A stretch of 64,000 bases of DNA from an uncultured Acidobacteriota bacterium (GCA_963804995.1 CAWDSK010000001.1:128001-192000), one strand, 5' to 3'. Counted from the stretch's first letter, positions 3,214-13,095 are shown. Made by a program: numbers and translations. Notes: generated by a model not told the origin, from the letters alone.

Positions 3214-5066
3214 GGAACAACCTCGGGATTCGGGATCACCACTCGGACGGTTGTGCCTCGGCCGCTTGAATCGATTTCCAGCCGACCCCCGAGTTGTCGG
3301 GCGCGCTCGCTCATGCCCATAATGCCCACTCCAAGCTTTCCGCTTTTCTGATTGCCCGAGTGGAGGGCCTTTGCGGGCATCCCCCGGCCTTTGTCCGCTA
3401 TTTCTAACTTCACCTCCGTCGCGCGCCGGGAAAGCCGTATCCTGGCTGTAGGACTTTTGGAGTGGCGGTGGACGTTTGTAAGGCCTTCCTGCACTACGCG
3501 AAAAAGGGTTGTCTCTGCCTCCTGGGGCAGTCGGCCAAATTGGGGAGACACTTTGAGGTCGACCTTGATTCCGCTTCGCTCGGCAAACCCCTTAACGTAC
3601 CAAGCCAAGGCTGAAGCCAAGCCATCTTCATCAAGCAGTGGCGGGTGTAACAAATAGGAGAGGGTGCGCATCTCCTTTAGGGACCGCTCTGCCACCTCAA
3701 GACTTCCAGACAGAGCTTGGCGTACTTTCGGATCAAGCTTACGAGCCGACTTGCGCGCCAAGGTGAGGTTCGCCACCAAACCGACGAGGTTCTGGCCTAT
3801 GGCGTCGTGGAGTTCCCGGGCAATGCGCCGCCGCTCCTCATCCTGCAACTGCAGCAAACGTGTAGAAAGCCCGCGGAGGGCCTTTTCAGCTTGCTTGCGT
3901 TCGGTGAGGTCCCGCATGACGGCCAACACACAAGGTGATCCCGTCCCATCACCAATAGGGACCGCATAAGTCTCCGCCCACCTTCGCGCCCCTTTGAGCC
4001 CGACAATCTCGAATTCCAAATTGGCATTATTGCCGCTGCAAACTCCCTGCAAGAGAGCTTTGAACGCCGCCCTGTGCTCGGGCACAATCAAGGGAAGCAC
4101 TGACTTTCCACTAACTTCGGCAAAGCTCTCAGCCTCGATCAGGGCCAGGCCCGCCGGGTTTATTTGAAGAAAGTCGCCGTTGCACGCGACCTTCGCGACA
4201 CATTCCGGCTCGGTTTCAACGATGGCACGCAGGTGACTTTCACTTTGCCGGAGCGCCTCCTCCGCCTCCTTACGCCGGGTAATATCGATGATGGTCCCTA
4301 AGATGAACGGTTGGCTGCCCGCCTCCCCTTCAATCAGATTCTCGTTAGCTAGAACCCAAACCGGGCTCCCATCTTTTCGCTTAAGGCGCAATTCTAGATT
4401 CGAGAGGGTCTTTTCCGCTCTTATGCGGGTGGTGATTGCCTCCGGCTCGCGGGGATCAAAGTAGAATTCCTGCACTGGATGAGCTAAGACCTCTTCACGA
4501 GAGGCAAACCCGAAGACCTTGACGAAAGCTTCATTACAGTCCGTGATGCGGCGGTCTAGGGCAGTGCGGTATACGCCCGCAAGGTTTCTTTCAAAAAGCA
4601 GGCGATACTGCTGCTCGCTTCTCTCGAGAGTTGCCTTCGCGTGCATCCGCTCAACTGCAAAGAGGACGGCGCGGCAAATCCACTCGCCACTCACCTTTCC
4701 TATGACCAGGTAATCCTGCGCCCCTTCCCGGACTGCTTGGAGGCCAAGCTTTTCATCGGTAAGATCCGTTAGCACTACGATGGGAGTGCCGGGGAATTGA
4801 TTGTGTAACTCCACAAAAGTGCTAATGCCCTGGCTGTCTGGAAGCCCGAGATCCAATAACACCGCGTCGATTCCCCCCTTCGCCAGCCGCTCGATCGCCG
4901 TCAGTAAGCTTGGGGCATCCTCCAGGTCAGCCAAGGCGGGCTTCGCTTCCTTCAGCATTTCCCGGATTAGGCTGATATTTTCCGGATTATCCTCCACCAG
5001 CAAGACCTTAATCGGCTCGGATGTCATGGCGTTTTTCCTCACGGGAGTTTCACGATCGTCAACCAA
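3210..5066 (-). CDS. REC-PAS-PAS-HisKA_3 sensor histidine kinase
   Basis: N-terminal receiver (VLLVEDN, LLDLGLPD), two PAS/PAC domains, ERRRIARELHD H-box, QEGLTNVHRH N-box; true start may be 5027. Confidence 0.93.
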   Translation of the reverse strand: MVDDRETPVRKNAMTSEPIKVLLVEDNPENISLIREMLKEAKPALADLEDAPSLLTAIERLAKGGIDAVLLDLGLPDSQGISTFVELHNQFPGTPIVVLTDLTDEKLGLQAVREGAQDYLVIGKVSGEWICRAVLFAVERMHAKATLERSEQQYRLLFERNLAGVYRTALDRRITDCNEAFVKVFGFASREEVLAHPVQEFYFDPREPEAITTRIRAEKTLSNLELRLKRKDGSPVWVLANENLIEGEAGSQPFILGTIIDITRRKEAEEALRQSESHLRAIVETEPECVAKVACNGDFLQINPAGLALIEAESFAEVSGKSVLPLIVPEHRAAFKALLQGVCSGNNANLEFEIVGLKGARRWAETYAVPIGDGTGSPCVLAVMRDLTERKQAEKALRGLSTRLLQLQDEERRRIARELHDAIGQNLVGLVANLTLARKSARKLDPKVRQALSGSLEVAERSLKEMRTLSYLLHPPLLDEDGLASALAWYVKGFAERSGIKVDLKVSPQFGRLPQEAETTLFRVVQEGLTNVHRHSKSPTARIRLSRRATEVKLEIADKGRGMPAKALHSGNQKSGKLGVGIMGMSERARQLGGRLEIDSSGRGTTVRVVIPNPEVVP

Positions 5067-7707: not shown

Positions 7708-7913
7708 TGTCCTTCGCCAATACACGATAATGCTGCATTCGCTGCAAAAGTGGCCGCCCAAAGACCGCAGTCTCCGCTTGTCGCTCTGTGCCTTGGTCTC
7801 TGGTCCGAGAGGTCATCGGGCTGGTCGCGCCTTTGCGCCGACAAGCACCCGCCTGGCGCGAGACAGGTTGCAGTTTTCGAGGTAAGGGAACGGCAGGCCG
7901 ATGCTGCCCTCGG

Positions 7914-8165
7914 TCAGGCAGCGCGCCGTTCGTAGCGATGGTGCAGGCCACCGACCTGCGGGATCTCCACCATCTCTCCGGCCTCCGGTCCCTGCACGAC
8001 CCGAGGGGTCGGAGCGTCCTTGGCTAAGGAGAGGTGAGTTCTTGAACCCAGATAGTAATCGAAATAACTTTTCAGGATTCGTCGCAGATGCTTCTCTCCC
8101 AGCACGATCACGTGATCCACGTACTCACGTCGGATGGAGCCCACCAGCCTTTCCGCAAACGGATT
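7914..8165 (-). pseudogene. 3' part of the interrupted rve transposase
   Basis: NPFAERLVGSIRREYVDHVIV...GGLHHRYERRAA; continues in frame from 11544. Confidence 0.9.
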
Positions 8166-8458
8166 GGATCAGGTCGTCAACTACACACCATAGAGACTAT
8201 TCAAAACGACGTTTCCGAGTAACTCACCCTTACCATCCACTGTTCCAACGTGAATTCGAATGGGTGGACTACCGCCAGAACTGGGGGGAGGACCGAGTGT
8301 ATTTCTACGACGAAGGAGGCCAGTTGACCTCGCTACCGGCGCGGTGGACGAGTGTCGTGGGGGAGGACCCATTCGTGGTCATAGGGGGAGGCCGCTCGTA
8401 TTTTCGCGTTGAGGACCTGATTGAATTGGTGCGTTTGGTGGAGGGTTTACGGTCCTGA
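8166..8458 (+). CDS. DUF5372 (Y4bD/Y4pK-like) small protein; its first 16 nt lie at 11528-11543
   Basis: FRVTHPYHPL...WGEDRVYF...SLPARWT...DPFV...GRSYFRVEDL motif pattern recalled for this family; no start codon inside the element ahead of the motif. Confidence 0.75.
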
Positions 8459-8472
8459 AGCCCCGGAAGGTC

Positions 8473-8514
8473 TGTAAAGGGAATTACGCCGTTTGTGTTA
8501 AAGGGATTATGTCG
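8473..8514 (+). repeat. Imperfect direct repeats, candidate HTH-protein binding sites
   Basis: tgtaaagggaattacgccg (8473) and tgttaaagggattatgtcg (8496). Confidence 0.45.
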
Positions 8515-8608
8515 GAGCTTGAGCCGAAGTCCAGAGTTTTCGGTGGGTGTGTGAGTGCAATATCCGCTTATTGTGCAACACAAATTCGGGTCGGAGGATA
8601 GAAAAGGC

Positions 8609-8637
8609 TTGACAGGGAGCAAGAGAATGTATATAAT
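8609..8637 (+). promoter_or_regulatory. Consensus sigma70 promoter of the recombinase operon
   Basis: TTGACA-17 nt-TATAAT; GGAG RBS before ATG 8679. Confidence 0.85.
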
Positions 8638-8678
8638 TAACATTACACTCGTTTGCCGGATTTGCTCCGGAGGAGCCC

Positions 8679-9146
8679 ATGTCCCCTTCCTCACGCCACG
8701 ATGCCAAGCGCCATATCCTGCGCTCCCAAGGTACCTTGAATCCCCGCCCGCAGGAGGTGGCCCACGCCCTGTTCCAGGACAGCGACTTCTTCAATCCCCG
8801 GGACTTGCTGCAGGTCAAGTACGAGATGCTGCGCCAAGTGAGGGTCGAAAACCAAGCGGTGAGCCAAGCGGCGGAGGCTTTTGGTTTCTCCAGACCCTCC
8901 TTCTACCTCGCCCAGGCGGGCTTCGTAGCCAGGGGACTCGCAGGATTGATTCCCCAGAAACGGGGACCTCGGCACGCCCACAAGCTCACGGCCGAGGTAA
9001 TGGAGTTCGTCCGGCAGGCCCGAGCTGCCGAACCCTCCTTGCGGAGCGAGGAACTGGCGGCCCGGGTGAAGAAAGCCTTCCGTCTACGGGTCCATCCTCG
9101 CAGCTTGGAGCGCCGGCTTCGGCAGCAGCAAAAAAAACGACGTTGA
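8679..9146 (+). CDS. Helix-turn-helix protein of the serine-recombinase element
   Basis: FFNPRDLLQVKYEMLR...AAEAFGFSRPSFY...GLAGLIPQKRGP...VHPRSLERRL; transposase-like HTH. Confidence 0.85.
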   Translation: MSPSSRHDAKRHILRSQGTLNPRPQEVAHALFQDSDFFNPRDLLQVKYEMLRQVRVENQAVSQAAEAFGFSRPSFYLAQAGFVARGLAGLIPQKRGPRHAHKLTAEVMEFVRQARAAEPSLRSEELAARVKKAFRLRVHPRSLERRLRQQQKKRR

Positions 9147-9448
9147 GCGACCCTCCCGTTGCTCCCCTGATGGCCCAGGAGGGGATCGTAAACCAATATG
9201 AGGAACTCCGGCGACAAGTGCGGGGTGAGTTAGGCGGCAGGCGCGGAGCCTTGGGCCTGGCGCTGTTTATTCGCCAGGGGATGAAAGGCTGGATGGAAGC
9301 CTGGTCCCACTGCCTGCCGGGTGGGATTCCGATGAAACCCCAGAATCCGTCCGGCCCTGAGGAGAGGGTTCCTCTCGATCTGCACACGGAAGTGGTTACG
9401 ATTCTGGCGAGCATGGTACTTCACAGTCGGCCGGAGGTGAGAGGATGA
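9143..9448 (+). CDS. Small hypothetical protein (ORF3; start TTG 9143 or ATG 9170, or a -1 fusion with the HTH gene)
   Basis: Fills the gap between the HTH gene and the recombinase with 4 nt overlaps at both ends; YEELR...GLALFIRQGMKGWMEAW. Confidence 0.7.
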   Translation: MSDPPVAPLMAQEGIVNQYEELRRQVRGELGGRRGALGLALFIRQGMKGWMEAWSHCLPGGIPMKPQNPSGPEERVPLDLHTEVVTILASMVLHSRPEVRG

Positions 9449-11538
9449 GAACCGAAATGCCGCAGAAGGTTCAAGCCCACCATTTGAAACGCGACGCCTA
9501 CCTGTATATCCGGCAGTCCACGCTTCGGCAGGTCTTTGAGAATACCGAGAGCACCCAGCGCCAGTACGCGTTACGCCAACAGGCCGTGGCCCTGGGCTGG
9601 CCTTTGGAACGGATCATCGTGATCGACAACGATCAAGGCCAGTCGGGAGCTTCGGCGGTAGACCGAGAGGGATTTCAAAGGTTGGTGAGTGAAGTGGGGA
9701 TGGGGCGAGCAGGGATCGTTCTGGGTCTCGAGGTGTCGCGCCTGGCGCGCAACTCCACGGACTGGCATCGACTGCTGGAGATCTGCGCGCTCACCGACAC
9801 GCTCATTTTGGATGAAGATGGCATCTACGACCCGGCGCACTTTAATGACCGCCTGCTGTTGGGGCTGAAAGGCACGATGAGCGAGGCGGAACTGCACGTG
9901 CTGCGAGCCCGGTTGCGAGGCGGAATCCTCAGCAAAGCTCGGCGCGGTGAGTTGGAGATCCCACCTCCGGTCGGCTTGGTCTATAACGGCTCGGGGCAAC
10001 TCGTTCTCGATCCGGACCAGCAGGTGCAACAGGGCCTTCGACTCTTGTTTGAAACCTTCCGTCGTACGGGATCCGCCCTGGCCACGGTGAAGGCCTTTCG
10101 CCAGCAGGGGCTGCTGTTTCCCCGCCGCCTGCGGGCGGGGCCCCACCAAGGAGAGTTGGTATGGGTGGAACTTGTTCACAGCCATGTCCTGCGCGTTTTG
10201 CACAATCCTCGGTATGCCGGGGCCTACGTCTTTGGCCGGAGTCAGACGCGCAAGAAGCTGGAGGGTGGCGTGACGGTGAAGTGGTTGCCTCGCGAGGAGT
10301 GGGACACTTGCCTTCCTGGGGCCCATGCGGGTTACCTCTCCTGGGAAGAATATGAGAGCAATCAGCGGCGGTTACGGGAATCCGCGCAAGCTTGGGGTCC
10401 CGACCGTCGTCAAAGCCCTCCGCGGGAAGGTCCAGCGCTTCTGCAGGGATTAGTGATCTGTGGCCGCTGTGGGAATCGGATGACCGTGCGTTATCATGTT
10501 CACCGGTCACGCCTGGCCCCCCATTATGTGTGTCAGCGGTACGGTATCGAACACGCTCAAACCATCTGCCAGACGGTTCCTGGAGCGGGTATCGACCAGG
10601 CCATCGGGGAACTGCTGATCGAAGTGGTCACTCCGTTAGCCCTGGAGGTGGCGCTGAGCGTGCAGCAAGAACTTCAGTCTCGTTGGGAAGAAGCGGATCG
10701 GTTGCGCCAAACCCAAGTCGAGCGCGCCCGGTATGAGGCGGAGCTGGCCGAGCGGCGCTACTTGCGTTGCGATCCCGACAACCGGCTCGTGGCGGATTCG
10801 CTCGAGGCCGACTGGAACCACAAGCTGCGTGCTCTGGGAGAGGCTCAGCAAGAGTATCAACGTCAACGTCAGGTCGACCGTGGGTTGTGTCGGGAAGAGG
10901 AACGCGCTCAGATTTTTGCCCTGGCCACAGACTTCCCTCGGCTGTGGCGCGATGCGAAAACGCCACATCGAGAACGGAAGCGTATGGTCCGCCTTCTATT
11001 GGAAGACGTCACGTTGACCCGCAACCATGAGATCACGCTTCAGATCCGCTTCAAGGGGGGAGCTACAAAGACCCTGCATTTGCCCATCCCCCTCAATGCC
11101 TGGAAACAGCGCACCACCAAGCCGGAGGTGGTGGCGGAGATCGACCGGCTCCTGGATCAACGTACCGATCGGCAGATCGCTAGCCTGCTGAATGAACGCG
11201 GCTGGCTCTCGGGCGAAGGCAGGCCCTTCAGCCCTCACATCGTCGCGCGCATACGGCGTAACTATGCCTTGAAGAGCGGTTACACTCGCCTACGCGGAGC
11301 CGGCCTGTTGACCCTGCAAGAGATGGCTAAGCTGCTCGGCATCTCCACCGGGTGGGTGAAAGTCTGGCGGGACCATGGTCTGTTAAGAGCTCAAGCCTAC
11401 AACGAGAAAAACGAGTGTTTATATGAACACCCCGGCGATGATCCGCCGCGCAAGATGCAAGGGACGAAGCTCGCTGCCAGGCAGCGATTCTTCGAGGACC
11501 CCTCGAATCATACCAATGAGGTGCAGTATGAAGCATAA
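9445..11538 (+). CDS. Large serine recombinase (resolvase, recombinase, Zn-ribbon, coiled coil, C-terminal HTH)
   Basis: AYLYIRQST catalytic Ser motif, SRLARN, LHNPRYAG, LLQGLVICGRCG..Y.C; 697 aa. Confidence 0.95.
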   Translation: MRTEMPQKVQAHHLKRDAYLYIRQSTLRQVFENTESTQRQYALRQQAVALGWPLERIIVIDNDQGQSGASAVDREGFQRLVSEVGMGRAGIVLGLEVSRLARNSTDWHRLLEICALTDTLILDEDGIYDPAHFNDRLLLGLKGTMSEAELHVLRARLRGGILSKARRGELEIPPPVGLVYNGSGQLVLDPDQQVQQGLRLLFETFRRTGSALATVKAFRQQGLLFPRRLRAGPHQGELVWVELVHSHVLRVLHNPRYAGAYVFGRSQTRKKLEGGVTVKWLPREEWDTCLPGAHAGYLSWEEYESNQRRLRESAQAWGPDRRQSPPREGPALLQGLVICGRCGNRMTVRYHVHRSRLAPHYVCQRYGIEHAQTICQTVPGAGIDQAIGELLIEVVTPLALEVALSVQQELQSRWEEADRLRQTQVERARYEAELAERRYLRCDPDNRLVADSLEADWNHKLRALGEAQQEYQRQRQVDRGLCREEERAQIFALATDFPRLWRDAKTPHRERKRMVRLLLEDVTLTRNHEITLQIRFKGGATKTLHLPIPLNAWKQRTTKPEVVAEIDRLLDQRTDRQIASLLNERGWLSGEGRPFSPHIVARIRRNYALKSGYTRLRGAGLLTLQEMAKLLGISTGWVKVWRDHGLLRAQAYNEKNECLYEHPGDDPPRKMQGTKLAARQRFFEDPSNHTNEVQYEA

Positions 11539-11543
11539 GCCTT

Positions 11544-12320
11544 TTGCCAAGGGCTCTGCGGCGCGGTCAGGACTTCGGTGATGTCCATGTCGCTGAGAAG
11601 ATTGCGGAAACCTTCCCCGTAGATCTGGTCCCGGTCTCGGATCAAATAGCGTGGCGCCGTGTCTTCGGGGAACGCTTCCAGGATTTGCTGAGTGGCCCAA
11701 GCCGCCGTCGGATGCTCGGTCACGTTGAAATGCACGACACGCCGGCGATGATGAGCCAGCACGACAAAAACGAATAACACTCGAAAACTGACCGTGGGCA
11801 CCGTGAAGAAGTCAACCGAGACCAAACCCTGAACATGGTTATTCAAGAAGGCCTTCCAAGTCTGGGAAGGTGGCTTCCGGCACTTGGGCATCAATCGGGA
11901 AACCGTGCGCTCGGAAACCTCCATTCCCAGCTTGAGCAGTTCCCCGTGAATGCGAGGGGCGCCCCAATACGGGTTCGCGGTCGCCATCTGCTTGACCAGG
12001 GCTCGGACTTCTGAACTGAGTTGTGGTCGACCTGAACTTCCCCGCTGCGAGATCCTCGCCCAATAGATTCGGAAGGCCTTTTGCTGCCAGCCGACAACAG
12101 TATCACCGTTCACCACATGCAAGGCCTGTCGCCAAGGGGCCCAGACTCGGGAAAGCACCACCCAAAACAATCGATCTTTCCTCTTCAGTCTCGGCACGCC
12201 CTTCCTTCTCTTTAGCACTCCCAGCTGTTGTCGCAAAGCCAGATTTTCCAAGGCCAAGTCACGGCGTTCTCTAAGAGCTGCAATTATGAAAATGACCAGC
12301 CATCGTAATGTCTCGATCAT
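11544..12320 (-). pseudogene. 5' part of the interrupted rve transposase
   Basis: LALENLALRQQL...WGAPRIHGELLKLG...DFFTV...YLIRDRD...TAPQSPWQ, then broken by the insertion. Confidence 0.9.
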
Positions 12321-12391
12321 GGGTTGGAGTGTGGAGGTAACGACCTGAATAATCAACGGATTTCGAGCCGATGGAGTTTTGGCGATGGACA

Positions 12392-13095
12392 GCTGGCTCG
12401 AACGAGCGACCTGGGGAAAGTATCTCCTGATCCCGCCTGACCAGGGGCCGGACGCCCTGGGCGACAGCAATCTCTTGGCCCTCGCGAGCCGTATCACTAG
12501 CCGGTACTACTTCGGCCTCGGCACCGCCGCAGCGCACTATGGGCTGACAACTCAGCACCGCAACGTGATCTTTGTTGTAACGCCGCAGCGCCCGCGCGCG
12601 CGCACCGTCGGAGAATCGCGGGTCCGGATCGTCAATCAGGCGGAGAGCAAGTTCTTCGGATTTGAGCCGGTCGACGTGCTCGGCTACAAGGTGATGATCT
12701 CGGACCGCGAAAAGACTGCCATCGACTGTATTGATCACCCACCACTCGCCGGAGGCGTGGGGGAGGCCGCCACCATTCTTGCCACCGCGACTCGCCGCTT
12801 CGACTGGAACAAAGCTGCTGATTACCTCGAACGGATAGGCACCGGCGCGCTGGTGCGCCGATTCGGCTGGCTGGCCGACCACGTCAAGGCGGATATTCCG
12901 CCCTCCACACGCGAGCGCCTGCTCAGGTTGGCGGCGCGAAGCCGCAAAACGTGGCTCGGCGCCGCTCCCGAACACGCTATGCCGGGCGCAATCGGTTATG
13001 ACGAGACATGGCGCCTGTTCGTGAATGTTTCGCGCGAAGAGCTGCAAGGCAGCGTCGGCCTCGGACAGCGGAAAACGGTCAGGGGAGGTGCGTAG
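12392..13095 (+). pseudogene. Type IV toxin-antitoxin AbiEi antitoxin, 5' truncated by the IS
   Basis: WLERATWGKYLLIP...YYFGLGTAAAHYGLTTQ...ISDREKTAIDC; N-terminal HTH missing. Confidence 0.8.

Follow-up and report, generated by a model that had tools for sequence, protein, structure and literature searches.

A serine-recombinase element whose attachment site lies within its own DUF5372 gene

Why should a mobile element carry a gene that, in its integrated form, has a body and a stop codon but no start? The question is raised by a large-serine-recombinase element found in a 64-kb stretch of DNA (the window) from an uncultured Acidobacteriota bacterium. The element spans 8166..11543 on the plus strand, or 3378 bp if the right-hand TT is counted, and the body of a small gene of the DUF5372 family begins at its very first base.

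The element and its target

The ends of the element are fixed by four near-identical copies in its own genome, which differ from each other at 0–5 positions and are all 3378 bp long except for one of 3379. All four diverge precisely at TT followed by GG... on the left and after ...CCTT on the right. Metagenome contigs of the same insertion sequence (IS) exist without the element and jump from 8163 to 11542, with exactly 3378 bases absent. The left crossover dinucleotide, TT (8164..8165), constitutes the last two target bases before the element in the four own copies, and TT is present at both junctions in all verified loci except L034, which has CG at both. A two-base crossover common to both junctions, the absence of a target duplication and the inverted attP half-sites are the hallmarks of a large serine recombinase. 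The element at 8166–11543 is a cut-and-paste element moved by such an enzyme. The occurrence of identical copies at different sites, the empty site and the junction contigs described below are indirect signs of recombinase-catalysed excision to a circle followed by re-insertion.

The target in the window is the DDE transposase gene of a host IS, to which the element lies antisense. The N-terminal part of the interrupted transposase is encoded at 11544..12497 (minus strand; Pfam HTH_32, HTH_21 and rve) and the C-terminal part at 7914..8165 (minus strand; Pfam rve_3, 2e-4). Upon removal of the element in silico, the transposase frame runs on into 7914–8165, and the rebuilt insertion site translates as ...S-P-W-Q-[N]-P-F-A-E-R.... 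A P-x-x-N/K-x-x-x-E transposase motif is the target at 41 of 45 insertion sites. An uninterrupted copy of the host IS was not found in the own genome, where the next best match covers part of the query at 86% identity.

The sole strong promoter is internal to the element, a sigma-70-type TTGACA-17-TATAAT sequence (8609..8637, plus strand) with 12 of 12 matches. A TTGACA-16-CATAAT-type site scoring at least 10 of 12 is found at the corresponding place in 25 of the 33 lineages compared below. Upstream of the promoter, TAAAGGGA(A)TTAYG occurs twice in imperfect form at a spacing of 24 nt (8475..8515, plus strand). The pair was picked out by eye and is a possible operator; an automated repeat search of 8440–8700 reported none, because the two copies differ by one indel.

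Three genes follow on the plus strand. The first encodes a 155 aa helix-turn-helix (HTH) protein (8679..9146; Pfam HTH_32/HTH_29/HTH_28) that is similar to the N-terminal part of IS630/IS481 transposases, with scores under the cut-offs for those families. The second, ORF3 (9170..9448), is an open frame of 92 aa with no match in Pfam, NCBIfam or PHROG, although a gene of its size is annotated at the equivalent place in a Burkholderia plasmid copy. Its stop overlaps the start of the third gene (ATGA), which encodes the large serine recombinase, a protein of 697 aa (9445..11538). The recombinase gene is whole in the integrated form. Its product has the Pfam domains Resolvase, Recombinase and Zn_ribbon_recom (PF00239, 1.7e-18; PF07508, 3.3e-14; PF13408, 1.6e-09; each above cut-off) and belongs to the PHROG 95 integrases (8.6e-51). 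Residues R23, Q24 and S25 are invariant across 27 recombinase sequences.

A gene divided at the attachment site

The DUF5372 body (8166..8458, plus strand; stop codon 8456–8458) matches Pfam PF17342 along the whole profile (positions 1–78 of 78) at 1.4e-22, with a score of 79.9 bits (cut-off 25). The domain begins at residue 18, and the window copy (L001) has no in-frame ATG, GTG or TTG between 8166 and the domain. At the other end of the element (11518..11530, plus strand) there is a Shine-Dalgarno sequence, GAGG (11518–11521), followed by the right attP half-site GGTGCAGT (11520–11527) and an ATG (11528–11530), all of them within the last codons of the recombinase gene, whose stop TAA is at 11536–11538. 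The last base of the element (11543) is T and the first (8166) is G, and reading from 11543 to 8166 stays in the DUF5372 frame, so that six right-end codons and 96 from the body make up a gene of 102 aa. The left attP half-site, ACTACACA (8180..8187, plus strand), has the consensus ACTGCACC in arm logos from 33 lineages and encodes an 'S-T-A/T-P' stretch. It mirrors the right one, with GGTGCAGT at -24..-17 in both arms.

The first-pass annotation had proposed this 102 aa junction gene, with its GAGG and its ATG at 11528 at the end of the recombinase gene, and every sequence statement made about it holds, including the lack of a native start in the integrated body and the location of that body upstream of the promoter. 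Its caveat that the frame is also open by chance is likewise correct: an ATG at 7901, supplied by the flank, opens an ORF of 185 aa (7901..8458) in the window copy.

To delimit homologous elements, a right-end rule that is blind to the start codon was used: GGTGCA with at most one mismatch, the dinucleotide of the left flank, and a location near the stop of the longest ORF. Of 83 loci, 55 passed, representing 35 lineages; L027 and L063 were set aside as unverified, which left 53 loci in 33 lineages from many phyla. When the elements were circularised in silico, the right end provided a GAGG-like Shine-Dalgarno sequence and an in-frame, stop-free ATG or GTG in 33/33 lineages. The start is ATG in 25, GTG in seven and a GTG one codon later in the remaining lineage, and it lies 16 nt from the junction in 32 cases; in the other, the distance is 13 nt. 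On the left, the domain begins 59 nt from the end in 31 lineages and 62 nt from it in two. One further locus, L064, carries a frameshift and is 2 nt out of frame. The same split layout is present in a Sinorhizobium medicae plasmid copy with 45% identity. The attachment site lies inside the element's own DUF5372 gene, and this layout is conserved across phyla.

An internal start is absent in 21 of the 33 lineages. The other 12 have some in-frame internal ATG, GTG or TTG, mostly the GTG codon for Val in the R-V-T-H-P of the domain, and the Burkholderia plasmid copy has an internal ATG, which RefSeq has adopted. Of 46 distinct flanks, 13 offer an in-frame ATG, GTG or TTG; in copy L002, a chance ATG is found 7 nt outside the element. 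Of the patterns that the first-pass annotation had named as contrary to its proposal, a start of their own in the homologs is not conserved, and a random frame across the junction gives way to a constant one. There is a strong case that the integrated DUF5372 body, without promoter or start, is silent, and an equally strong one that after the ends have been joined DUF5372 enters the operon as its fourth gene (HTH, ORF3, recombinase, DUF5372), with translational coupling and expression from the promoter at 8609–8637.

The DUF5372 protein and the direction of recombination

DUF5372 is predicted to form a small SH3-like barrel with a C-terminal helix. Its best Foldseek match has an E-value of 7.3e-3, with ribosomal eS4 and further SH3-like barrels among the hits. 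VIA-align gave a best Z of 5.5, with NdhS, KOW and SH3 domains and the C-terminal domains of retroviral integrases at 4.5–5.5. These fold matches are generic, weak and uninformative on function. The protein has no sequence match in the PDB and no PHROG or NCBIfam family. A search for longer DUF5372 proteins yielded no fusion to the recombinase, only nine proteins of 173–250 aa whose N-termini are unrelated and stem from read-through of the flanks.

Sequence alignment of the recombinase to solved integrases covers the catalytic domain only, and the coiled coil was placed from an AlphaFold2 model. In this model, a long helical hairpin (383–481), made up of helices 383–441 and 447–481, is inserted between strands 337–379 and 519–546, which corresponds to the coiled coil within the zinc ribbon of large serine recombinases. 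A predicted complex between DUF5372 and the recombinase has an ipSAE of 0.73 (0.74, 0.73 and 0.73 in the individual runs), compared to 0.00 for the best of three controls. At least 82% of the contacts are common to the runs, and the partner pLDDT is at least 72. Among solved complexes, 116 of 157 attain the ipSAE mark applied, as do 2 of 215 mismatched pairs; these counts hold approximately, since the alignments were self-made. Because DUF5372 has no solved relative, the score does not reflect a structure already known to the model. The predicted interface on the recombinase comprises residues 338–343, 394–414, 482–518 and 523–541. These residues fall in strands of the zinc ribbon and in the parts of the hairpin close to the domain, while the hairpin tip (442–446) is outside.

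DUF5372 thus probably docks, according to the model, at the point where the coiled coil emerges from the zinc-ribbon domain. The known directionality factors of serine integrases bind at this DBD2/coiled-coil junction, as described in an excerpt of PMC12286644, and the predicted position of DUF5372 is the one expected of such a factor. Of the roles suggested by the first-pass annotation, that of a directionality factor is supported by the predicted complex, whereas that of a replication helper found no support.

In the proposed life cycle, the element would have to be able to leave the chromosome without DUF5372, and re-insertion would have to take place while the protein is being made. DUF5372 would most likely turn the recombinase to insertion of the circle, or stop immediate re-excision, and would thereby be a directionality factor in the reverse sense, the supply of which would be shut off automatically by the insertion event itself. 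The proposed direction is derived from the logic of the life cycle: canonical directionality factors favour excision, which fits poorly with a supply that begins after excision. We lean, with some reserve, towards DUF5372 as a recombinase cofactor wired to the topological state of the element, which would either favour insertion or block immediate re-excision. A fuller scheme is offered more tentatively, as one that could well turn out otherwise: a self-contained two-state switch in which the recombinase with HTH/ORF3 carries out excision, excision assembles the gene for the 'reverse' factor and insertion dismantles it. The whole family, spread over many phyla, would rely on this switch for its life as a hyperparasite of ISs, inserting into the codons of the transposase catalytic motif and restoring them precisely on leaving. 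Such a two-state direction switch would be of a kind undescribed for serine recombinases.

DUF5372 could instead be a canonical directionality factor that promotes excision, blocks insertion and acts in trans from circles. One rare excision would then trigger the excision of other copies and keep the circles open, with horizontal transfer as one possible use. Known excision-promoting factors bind at the site predicted here, there are many copies on which to act in trans (four here and at least eight in each of two other genomes), and chance starts in the flanks of some integrated copies could fire the first event. However, with the gene for an insertion blocker coupled to that of the recombinase, the circle would stand in the way of its own re-insertion, and the first excision would be left to accidents of the flank, where 33 of 46 have no start. 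We consider a canonical factor unlikely, although it deserves to be taken seriously.

It is improbable that DUF5372 serves the circle through DNA binding or regulation, be it operon repression, target choice by DNA binding or circle maintenance, with no cofactor role. SH3/KOW-like barrels are often nucleic-acid binders, and KOW, SH3 and retroviral integrase C-terminal domains are the best fold matches. However, their generic and weak nature counts against this, as does the wide margin by which the predicted recombinase complex beats its controls, and the element has no replication gene.

Joined forms, conserved bases and related systems

A scan of metagenomes for the junction pattern gave 15 matches, 10 of which are due to chance, with neither recombinase nor DUF5372 adjacent. 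Three contigs (L090, L097 and L098) contain the 3' end of the recombinase gene, the junction and then an intact gene of 102–110 aa; these contigs are 1.1–2.7 kb long, under one element length. In two others (L085 and L092), the junction is followed by about 20 codons and then by unrelated chromosomal genes, so that the gene is truncated and the contigs are not simple circles. The single match to the pattern in viral contigs is the contig already counted as the chance match L086. Matching of sequencing runs returned 24 DNA runs, with a share of at most 0.35, and 0 RNA runs. In contigs of relatives from four runs (X1, X2, X3 and X10), only the empty site and related elements were present, and the joint of an own-genome circle, from right end to left end, was not seen, contigs being blind to rare forms. 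The joined form foreseen by the first-pass annotation is borne out by the intact gene in three metagenome contigs; no circle was seen for the own genome.

The junction contigs are compatible with either a circle or a tandem. Could the joined gene be used mainly from head-to-tail tandems in the chromosome, arising for instance by insertion of a dimer circle, rather than from free circles? The three contigs with an intact gene are short enough to fit both, and the other two have the junction in a chromosomal context. However, the junction pattern occurs in 0/84 genomic loci, and each of the 53 verified copies is a lone insertion between target flanks, which makes tandems an improbable main source.

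At the right end, the conserved bases overlap the recombinase binding site, and constraint at the DNA level is only partly separable from a translation signal. Of the 33 lineages, all have G at -26 and 31 have A at -25. The right arm conserves GA at -26/-25 and RTG at -16..-14, while the mirrored positions of the left arm are variable or different. Six actinobacterial lineages retain GAGGTGCAGTATG although their recombinase gene ends 27–104 nt earlier, and the recombinase coding sequence is thus not the explanation. Over the 56 nt from the start codon to +40, stops occur in the junction frame in 0/33 lineages, but in the other two frames in 26/33 and 30/33. The DUF5372 domain is under purifying selection (median dN/dS 0.24, 380 pairs) and must therefore be expressed. 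It is accordingly very improbable that the ATG and GAGG simply result from the recombinase binding site and last codons, with DUF5372 made by flank read-through or from a non-canonical internal start, or not made at all: the start codon does directly adjoin the conserved half-site, and the bases also encode the recombinase tail in most lineages, but the mirrored half-site has no need of them, the frame is open for at least 56 nt in every lineage, indels come in threes only, and just about 50 nt of element, without a promoter, lie upstream of the domain.

Several known systems bear comparison. In the clostridial elements Tn4451 and Tn4453, which use the recombinase TnpX, the circle joint reportedly forms a promoter for the recombinase gene, a finding attributed to Lyras and Rood in 2000. 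The present element shares with them a large serine recombinase, a presumed excised circle and an expression signal made by the joint that is absent when integrated. It is not a switch of the Tn4451 type, since its strong promoter is internal and what the joint supplies is a ribosome-binding site, a start and five codons, for a different gene. The directionality factors of serine integrases, such as SprB of SPbeta and gp3 of phiC31, are encoded by whole genes under separate control and favour excision. DUF5372 resembles them as a small element-encoded protein with a predicted position at the DBD2/coiled-coil junction of the element's recombinase, but it would be supplied only after excision and has no sequence relative or clear fold relative among them.

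In mycobacteriophage BPs, integration removes the 3' end of the repressor gene, resulting in an altered repressor that is shorter and active. An excerpt of PMC4557955 describes attP within a regulatory gene in BPs and its relatives, with different products in the integrated and free states. Integration of the present element instead strips the 5' signals, leaving a body without a start in 21/33 lineages from which no product is expected, so this is not integration-dependent immunity of the BPs type. Circle-specific promoters are described in parts of PMC13023037 and PMC2654960 for ICEclc (Pcir), ICEKp1 (P3'end), PAPI-1 (soj) and the transfer genes of Tn916. As far as those parts go, there too a signal at one end serves a gene at the other only once the element is circular; in contrast, the effect is transcriptional only, on genes with their own starts, in large conjugative elements with tyrosine recombinases. 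The 'suicidal' integrases of the SSV1/pTN3/pT26-2 type have an attachment site within a coding gene, which is split by integration and restored by excision, and an excerpt of PMC8371274 states that such recombinases are found in archaea only. There, the split gene is that of the tyrosine integrase itself, divided into N- and C-terminal halves, whereas here it is the initiation region of a presumed cofactor that is separated, while the bacterial serine recombinase stays whole; the element is thus not of this type either.

Genes for DUF5372, also named 'Y4bD/Y4pK family protein', occur on rhizobial and other plasmids, with a match in 132 plasmid records, 61 of them from Sinorhizobium and 38 from Rhizobium. 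These genes belong to the same Pfam family and the same four-gene element, the split layout having been verified in the one S. medicae copy, but databases treat them as small genes of the ordinary kind, with starts chosen ad hoc inside the gene or in the flank. A literature search found no paper on DUF5372 and none relevant on y4bD, y4pK, y4bA or y4pH, nor any on serine recombinases that insert into transposase genes or on the split gene. Among the 25 of 92 papers listed on large serine recombinases, circular intermediates and ISs, none deals with the present element.

Promoters (Tn4451, ICEclc and PAPI-1) and archaeal split integrase genes are known to be controlled by the physical state of a mobile element. 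Here, the part that is split off is the translation start of a presumed recombinase cofactor, and the presence of DUF5372 would be an exact readout of the element's state, free or inserted. This would, if confirmed, provide a function and a correct gene model for a Pfam family that is annotated with arbitrary starts. It would also represent a natural, compact means of serine-recombinase directionality without outside regulation, of interest for genome engineering, and would raise the question of an insertion-favouring factor. With a conserved catalytic motif in the DDE transposases of several IS families as their target, these elements would, if this is true, be widespread parasites and reversible switches of transposable elements.

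A gene split by the ends of its element

The element (8166-11543 in the window) has all of its genes on the forward strand. A DUF5372 body without a start codon (8166-8458; PF17342, 1.4e-22) is followed by genes for a helix-turn-helix protein (8679-9146), a 92-residue protein of no known family (9170-9448) and a 697-residue large serine recombinase with Resolvase, Recombinase and Zn_ribbon_recom domains (9445-11538). A perfect sigma-70 promoter (TTGACA-17-TATAAT, 8609-8637) lies 3' of the DUF5372 body and 5' of the other three genes. On either side is an interrupted DDE transposase gene on the reverse strand, whose two parts (11544-12497 and 7914-8165) belong to one gene.

The organism's own genome has four copies of the element, three of 3378 bp and one of 3379 bp, with 0-5 differences, and divergence among all four begins exactly at TT|GG on the left and past CCTT on the right. 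Contigs from three of the four metagenome runs carry the element-free IS, with exactly 3378 bases skipped. These exact shared ends and the element-free IS establish that 8166-11543 is a discrete unit whose crossover is TT, which the first-pass annotation had assumed. In one of the own-genome copies, L004 on contig 6 of genome G000, one base is inserted into the recombinase gene at the equivalent of about 9725 in the window, and the open frame of this gene is 616 codons, compared with 725 from stop to stop in the other own copies. It is probably non-autonomous.

The same annotation had proposed that a 102-residue DUF5372 ORF exists only in the excised circle. The final 26 bases of the element contain GAGG (11518-11521), an ATG (11528) and the recombinase stop codon (11536-11538). 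When 11543 is joined to 8166, the ATG frame runs on into the DUF5372 body to give 102 codons, so that the proposed ORF, with its ribosome-binding site and start at the right end, is borne out by reading across the joint. The body is indeed without a native start when integrated, since no in-frame ATG, GTG or TTG was found inside the window element upstream of the conserved domain. The chance ORF from 7901 that had been raised as a caveat is real as well. Between DUF5372 and the promoter, at 8475-8515, are two imperfect copies of TAAAGGGA(A)TTAYG, 24 nt apart, and in most lineages the -10 box is CATAAT, followed by a conserved T-A-x-x-T-T-A-C-A; these copies and the motif behind the -10 box are possible operator sites.

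Conservation of the start across the junction

A search with the DUF5372 alignment gave 223 relatives in genome contigs, of which 80 loci were kept. Together with the four own copies, this makes 84 loci, 83 with the left end on the contig. Left ends were placed by a conserved left-arm motif and right ends by a rule that is blind to the start codon: GGTGCA with at most one mismatch and a crossover dinucleotide identical to that of the left flank, both lying between -80 and +250 relative to the longest ORF's stop codon. The GGTGCA and dinucleotide conditions alone are expected by chance at about 0.9 sites per locus. Right-end candidates were present in 63 loci, and 55 of these passed the position filter, representing 35 lineages at 90% identity. 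Lineages L027 and L063, in which the left ends are non-matching or degenerate, were set aside, leaving 33. Eight loci have a candidate that failed the filter; two of them (L024 and L084) have the same in-frame ATG, and in a third, L064, the junction frame is off by 2 nt, so that this copy is either defective or genuinely exceptional. In the five others of the eight (L011, L026, L043, L045 and L052), no right end was identifiable. The remaining 20 loci have no candidate, most of them ending too soon past the gene.

When these elements are circularised in silico, the junction frame is open with a start codon in all 33 lineages. In 32 of them the start precedes the junction by 16 nt (25 ATG, 7 GTG); in the remaining lineage, L006, it is a GTG at 13 nt. 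The expectation that homologous elements keep an in-frame start at the end of the recombinase gene thus holds, and the frame across the junction is not random. The same layout is found in a plasmid copy from Sinorhizobium medicae at 45% identity and in one from Burkholderia, which has an internal ATG as well.

The half-site GGTGCAGT is mirrored in both arms at -24 to -17, along with more mirrored positions, so the start codon and ribosome-binding site lie in DNA that is itself constrained. The left half-site, read as codons, gives the protein's conserved S-T-A/T-P stretch. Judged from the aligned sequences, the right-arm bases, the retention of GAGGTGCAGTATG, the openness of the frame and the dN/dS values appear to go beyond constraint from a recombinase binding site. 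Conservation of G at -26 (all 33 lineages), A at -25 (31 of the 33) and R-T-G at -16 to -14 is confined to the right arm, and the left-arm positions that mirror these are variable or different. GAGGTGCAGTATG is kept in six actinobacterial lineages despite a recombinase gene that stops 27-104 nt earlier. From the start codon to +40, stops occur in the junction frame in none of the 33 lineages, compared with 26 and 30 in the other two frames, and 31 lineages have 59 nt between left end and domain, with 62 nt in the other two. The median dN/dS is 0.24 for the DUF5372 domain (380 pairs), which indicates a gene in use, and 0.77 for the N-terminal linker (459 pairs).

An in-frame start inside the DUF5372 body is absent in 21 of the 33 lineages but present in the other 12, mostly as a GTG, the Val codon in the R-V-T-H-P of the domain. 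In integrated copies, the frame remains open into the flank over a median of 52 nt (46 distinct flanks), with a chance ATG in 8 of the 46 and any of ATG, GTG or TTG in 13. DUF5372 starts in gene-caller and RefSeq models are arbitrary. In the own-genome copy L002 (G000 contig 6), an in-frame ATG comes from target sequence 7 nt outside the left end, so gene callers assign a 99-residue DUF5372 protein (P0001) to an integrated copy. Both L002 and L004 have C>T at the equivalent of 8175, which creates an in-frame TTG. In three plasmid records (L100, L101 and L103), the RefSeq DUF5372 models begin at internal codons, within the conserved domain itself in L103, or overlap the adjoining transposase fragment; the recombinase of L100 is in three pieces, and L101 has nested, partly decayed element copies within an IS21-like gene.

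A pattern spanning both half-sites had 15 metagenome matches and none in the 84 genomic loci. In five of the 15, the 3' end of a recombinase gene is directly followed by a left end; the other ten are chance matches, about the number expected. Three of the five have intact junction genes, of 110 (L090), 102 (L097) and 103 codons (L098), and fit a circle and a tandem alike, because the contigs are shorter than one element. Other contigs with DUF5372, of lengths 3379-3624, are about as long as one element. The other two, L085 (1303-1345) and L092 (439-481), have one precise junction of right and left ends in common, but DUF5372 breaks off after about 20 codons into unrelated chromosomal genes, with three ORFs of 120-147 residues; a tandem or rearranged copy may have left this junction behind. 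The suggested search for junctions thus found an intact joint in three metagenome contigs, but none for the window's own element in the contigs of the four runs. The search for sequencing runs turned up no RNA run.

Target choice and spread

Throughout the family (L001-L084), elements are inserted antisense in DDE transposase genes, and the targets come from several IS families. Joining the flanks rebuilt 45 distinct insertion sites. Read opposite to the element's gene strand, 41 of the 45 carry Glu four residues past the crossover codon, and Pro stands three residues ahead of it in 39; in the other two frames the figures are 0 and 4 of 45. Readings include P-W-Q-[N]-G-V-A-E, N-P-Y-D-[N]-A-x-C-E-S-F, S-P-Q-A-[K]-G-R-V-E-R and P-Q-G-[K]-G-K-I-E, and the crossover lies within the Asn/Lys codon of P-x-x-[N/K]-x-x-x-E. 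In codon terms, the conserved attB bases TC at -14/-13, TT, and GG at +8/+9 correspond to Glu, Asn/Lys and Pro. We take this stretch to be the surroundings of the last catalytic residue in DDE transposases of several IS families, and a RefSeq IS3-family transposase fragment adjoins one such copy.

The 27 aligned recombinases are 55-71% identical to that of the window, with a mean column identity of 72%, and come from Acidobacteriota, Actinomycetota, Myxococcota, Chloroflexota, Planctomycetota and other phyla; this similarity between distant phyla suggests recent horizontal spread of the element. In peat metagenomes, two contigs (4011 bases and 3642 bases; runs X2 and X3) carry a relative of the element that differs at 119 positions over window 8164-11555 (about 96.5% identity) and has other flanks, which indicates that such habitats harbour close relatives widely.

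The predicted protein and the proposed switch

The DUF5372 model (pLDDT 76.9) has four strands and a C-terminal helix, and fold searches returned generic SH3/KOW-like barrels alone. A complex predicted from the recombinase and DUF5372 alignments scored 0.73, with 0.00 for the best control, a contact agreement between runs of at least 82% and a partner pLDDT of at least 72. Among solved complexes, 116 of 157 reach the mark applied, and among mismatched pairs 2 of 215, counts that are rough here because our own alignments were used. No solved structure of a DUF5372 relative was found, so the score does not reflect a structure already known to the prediction model. In the recombinase model, the predicted interface (residues 338-343, 394-414, 482-518 and 523-541) maps to the strands of the zinc ribbon and, in a long helical hairpin (383-441, 447-481), to the portions near that domain but not to the tip. 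On DUF5372, it includes residues 77-87. For verified serine-integrase directionality factors, binding at the junction of DBD2 and coiled coil is predicted, and for SPbeta shown (PMC12286644). DUF5372 is thus predicted to bind the recombinase at the directionality site. Past the zinc-ribbon domain, the recombinase continues for about 150 C-terminal residues (about 550-697; window 11095-11535), an extension that includes a MerR/HTH_17-like helix-turn-helix (621-649) and is kept in the 27 homologues.

Tn4451 has a promoter at its circle joint, and such an expression signal is the one feature it has in common with the element. The other systems also have one feature in common with it each: circle-joint promoters in ICEclc, ICEKp1, PAPI-1 and Tn916, a gene split by its own attachment site in archaeal suicidal integrases and the BPs repressor, and a cofactor role, presumed for DUF5372, in serine-integrase directionality factors. 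A split initiation region and a cofactor gene are combined in none of these, and a literature search found no published account of DUF5372 or of the element.

We strongly infer that the joined form is the sole source of DUF5372, whose gene would be translationally coupled there and fourth in the operon. Excision would then occur from a state free of DUF5372 and insertion in a state that makes it. The main rival is that DUF5372 is a canonical excision-promoting factor that acts in trans, a role known for factors that bind at the directionality site. The element clearly moves, so excision must be possible without DUF5372 and insertion while it is made. Most likely, DUF5372 therefore favours insertion or blocks re-excision, a direction deduced from these two states, and insertion itself would turn off its supply.
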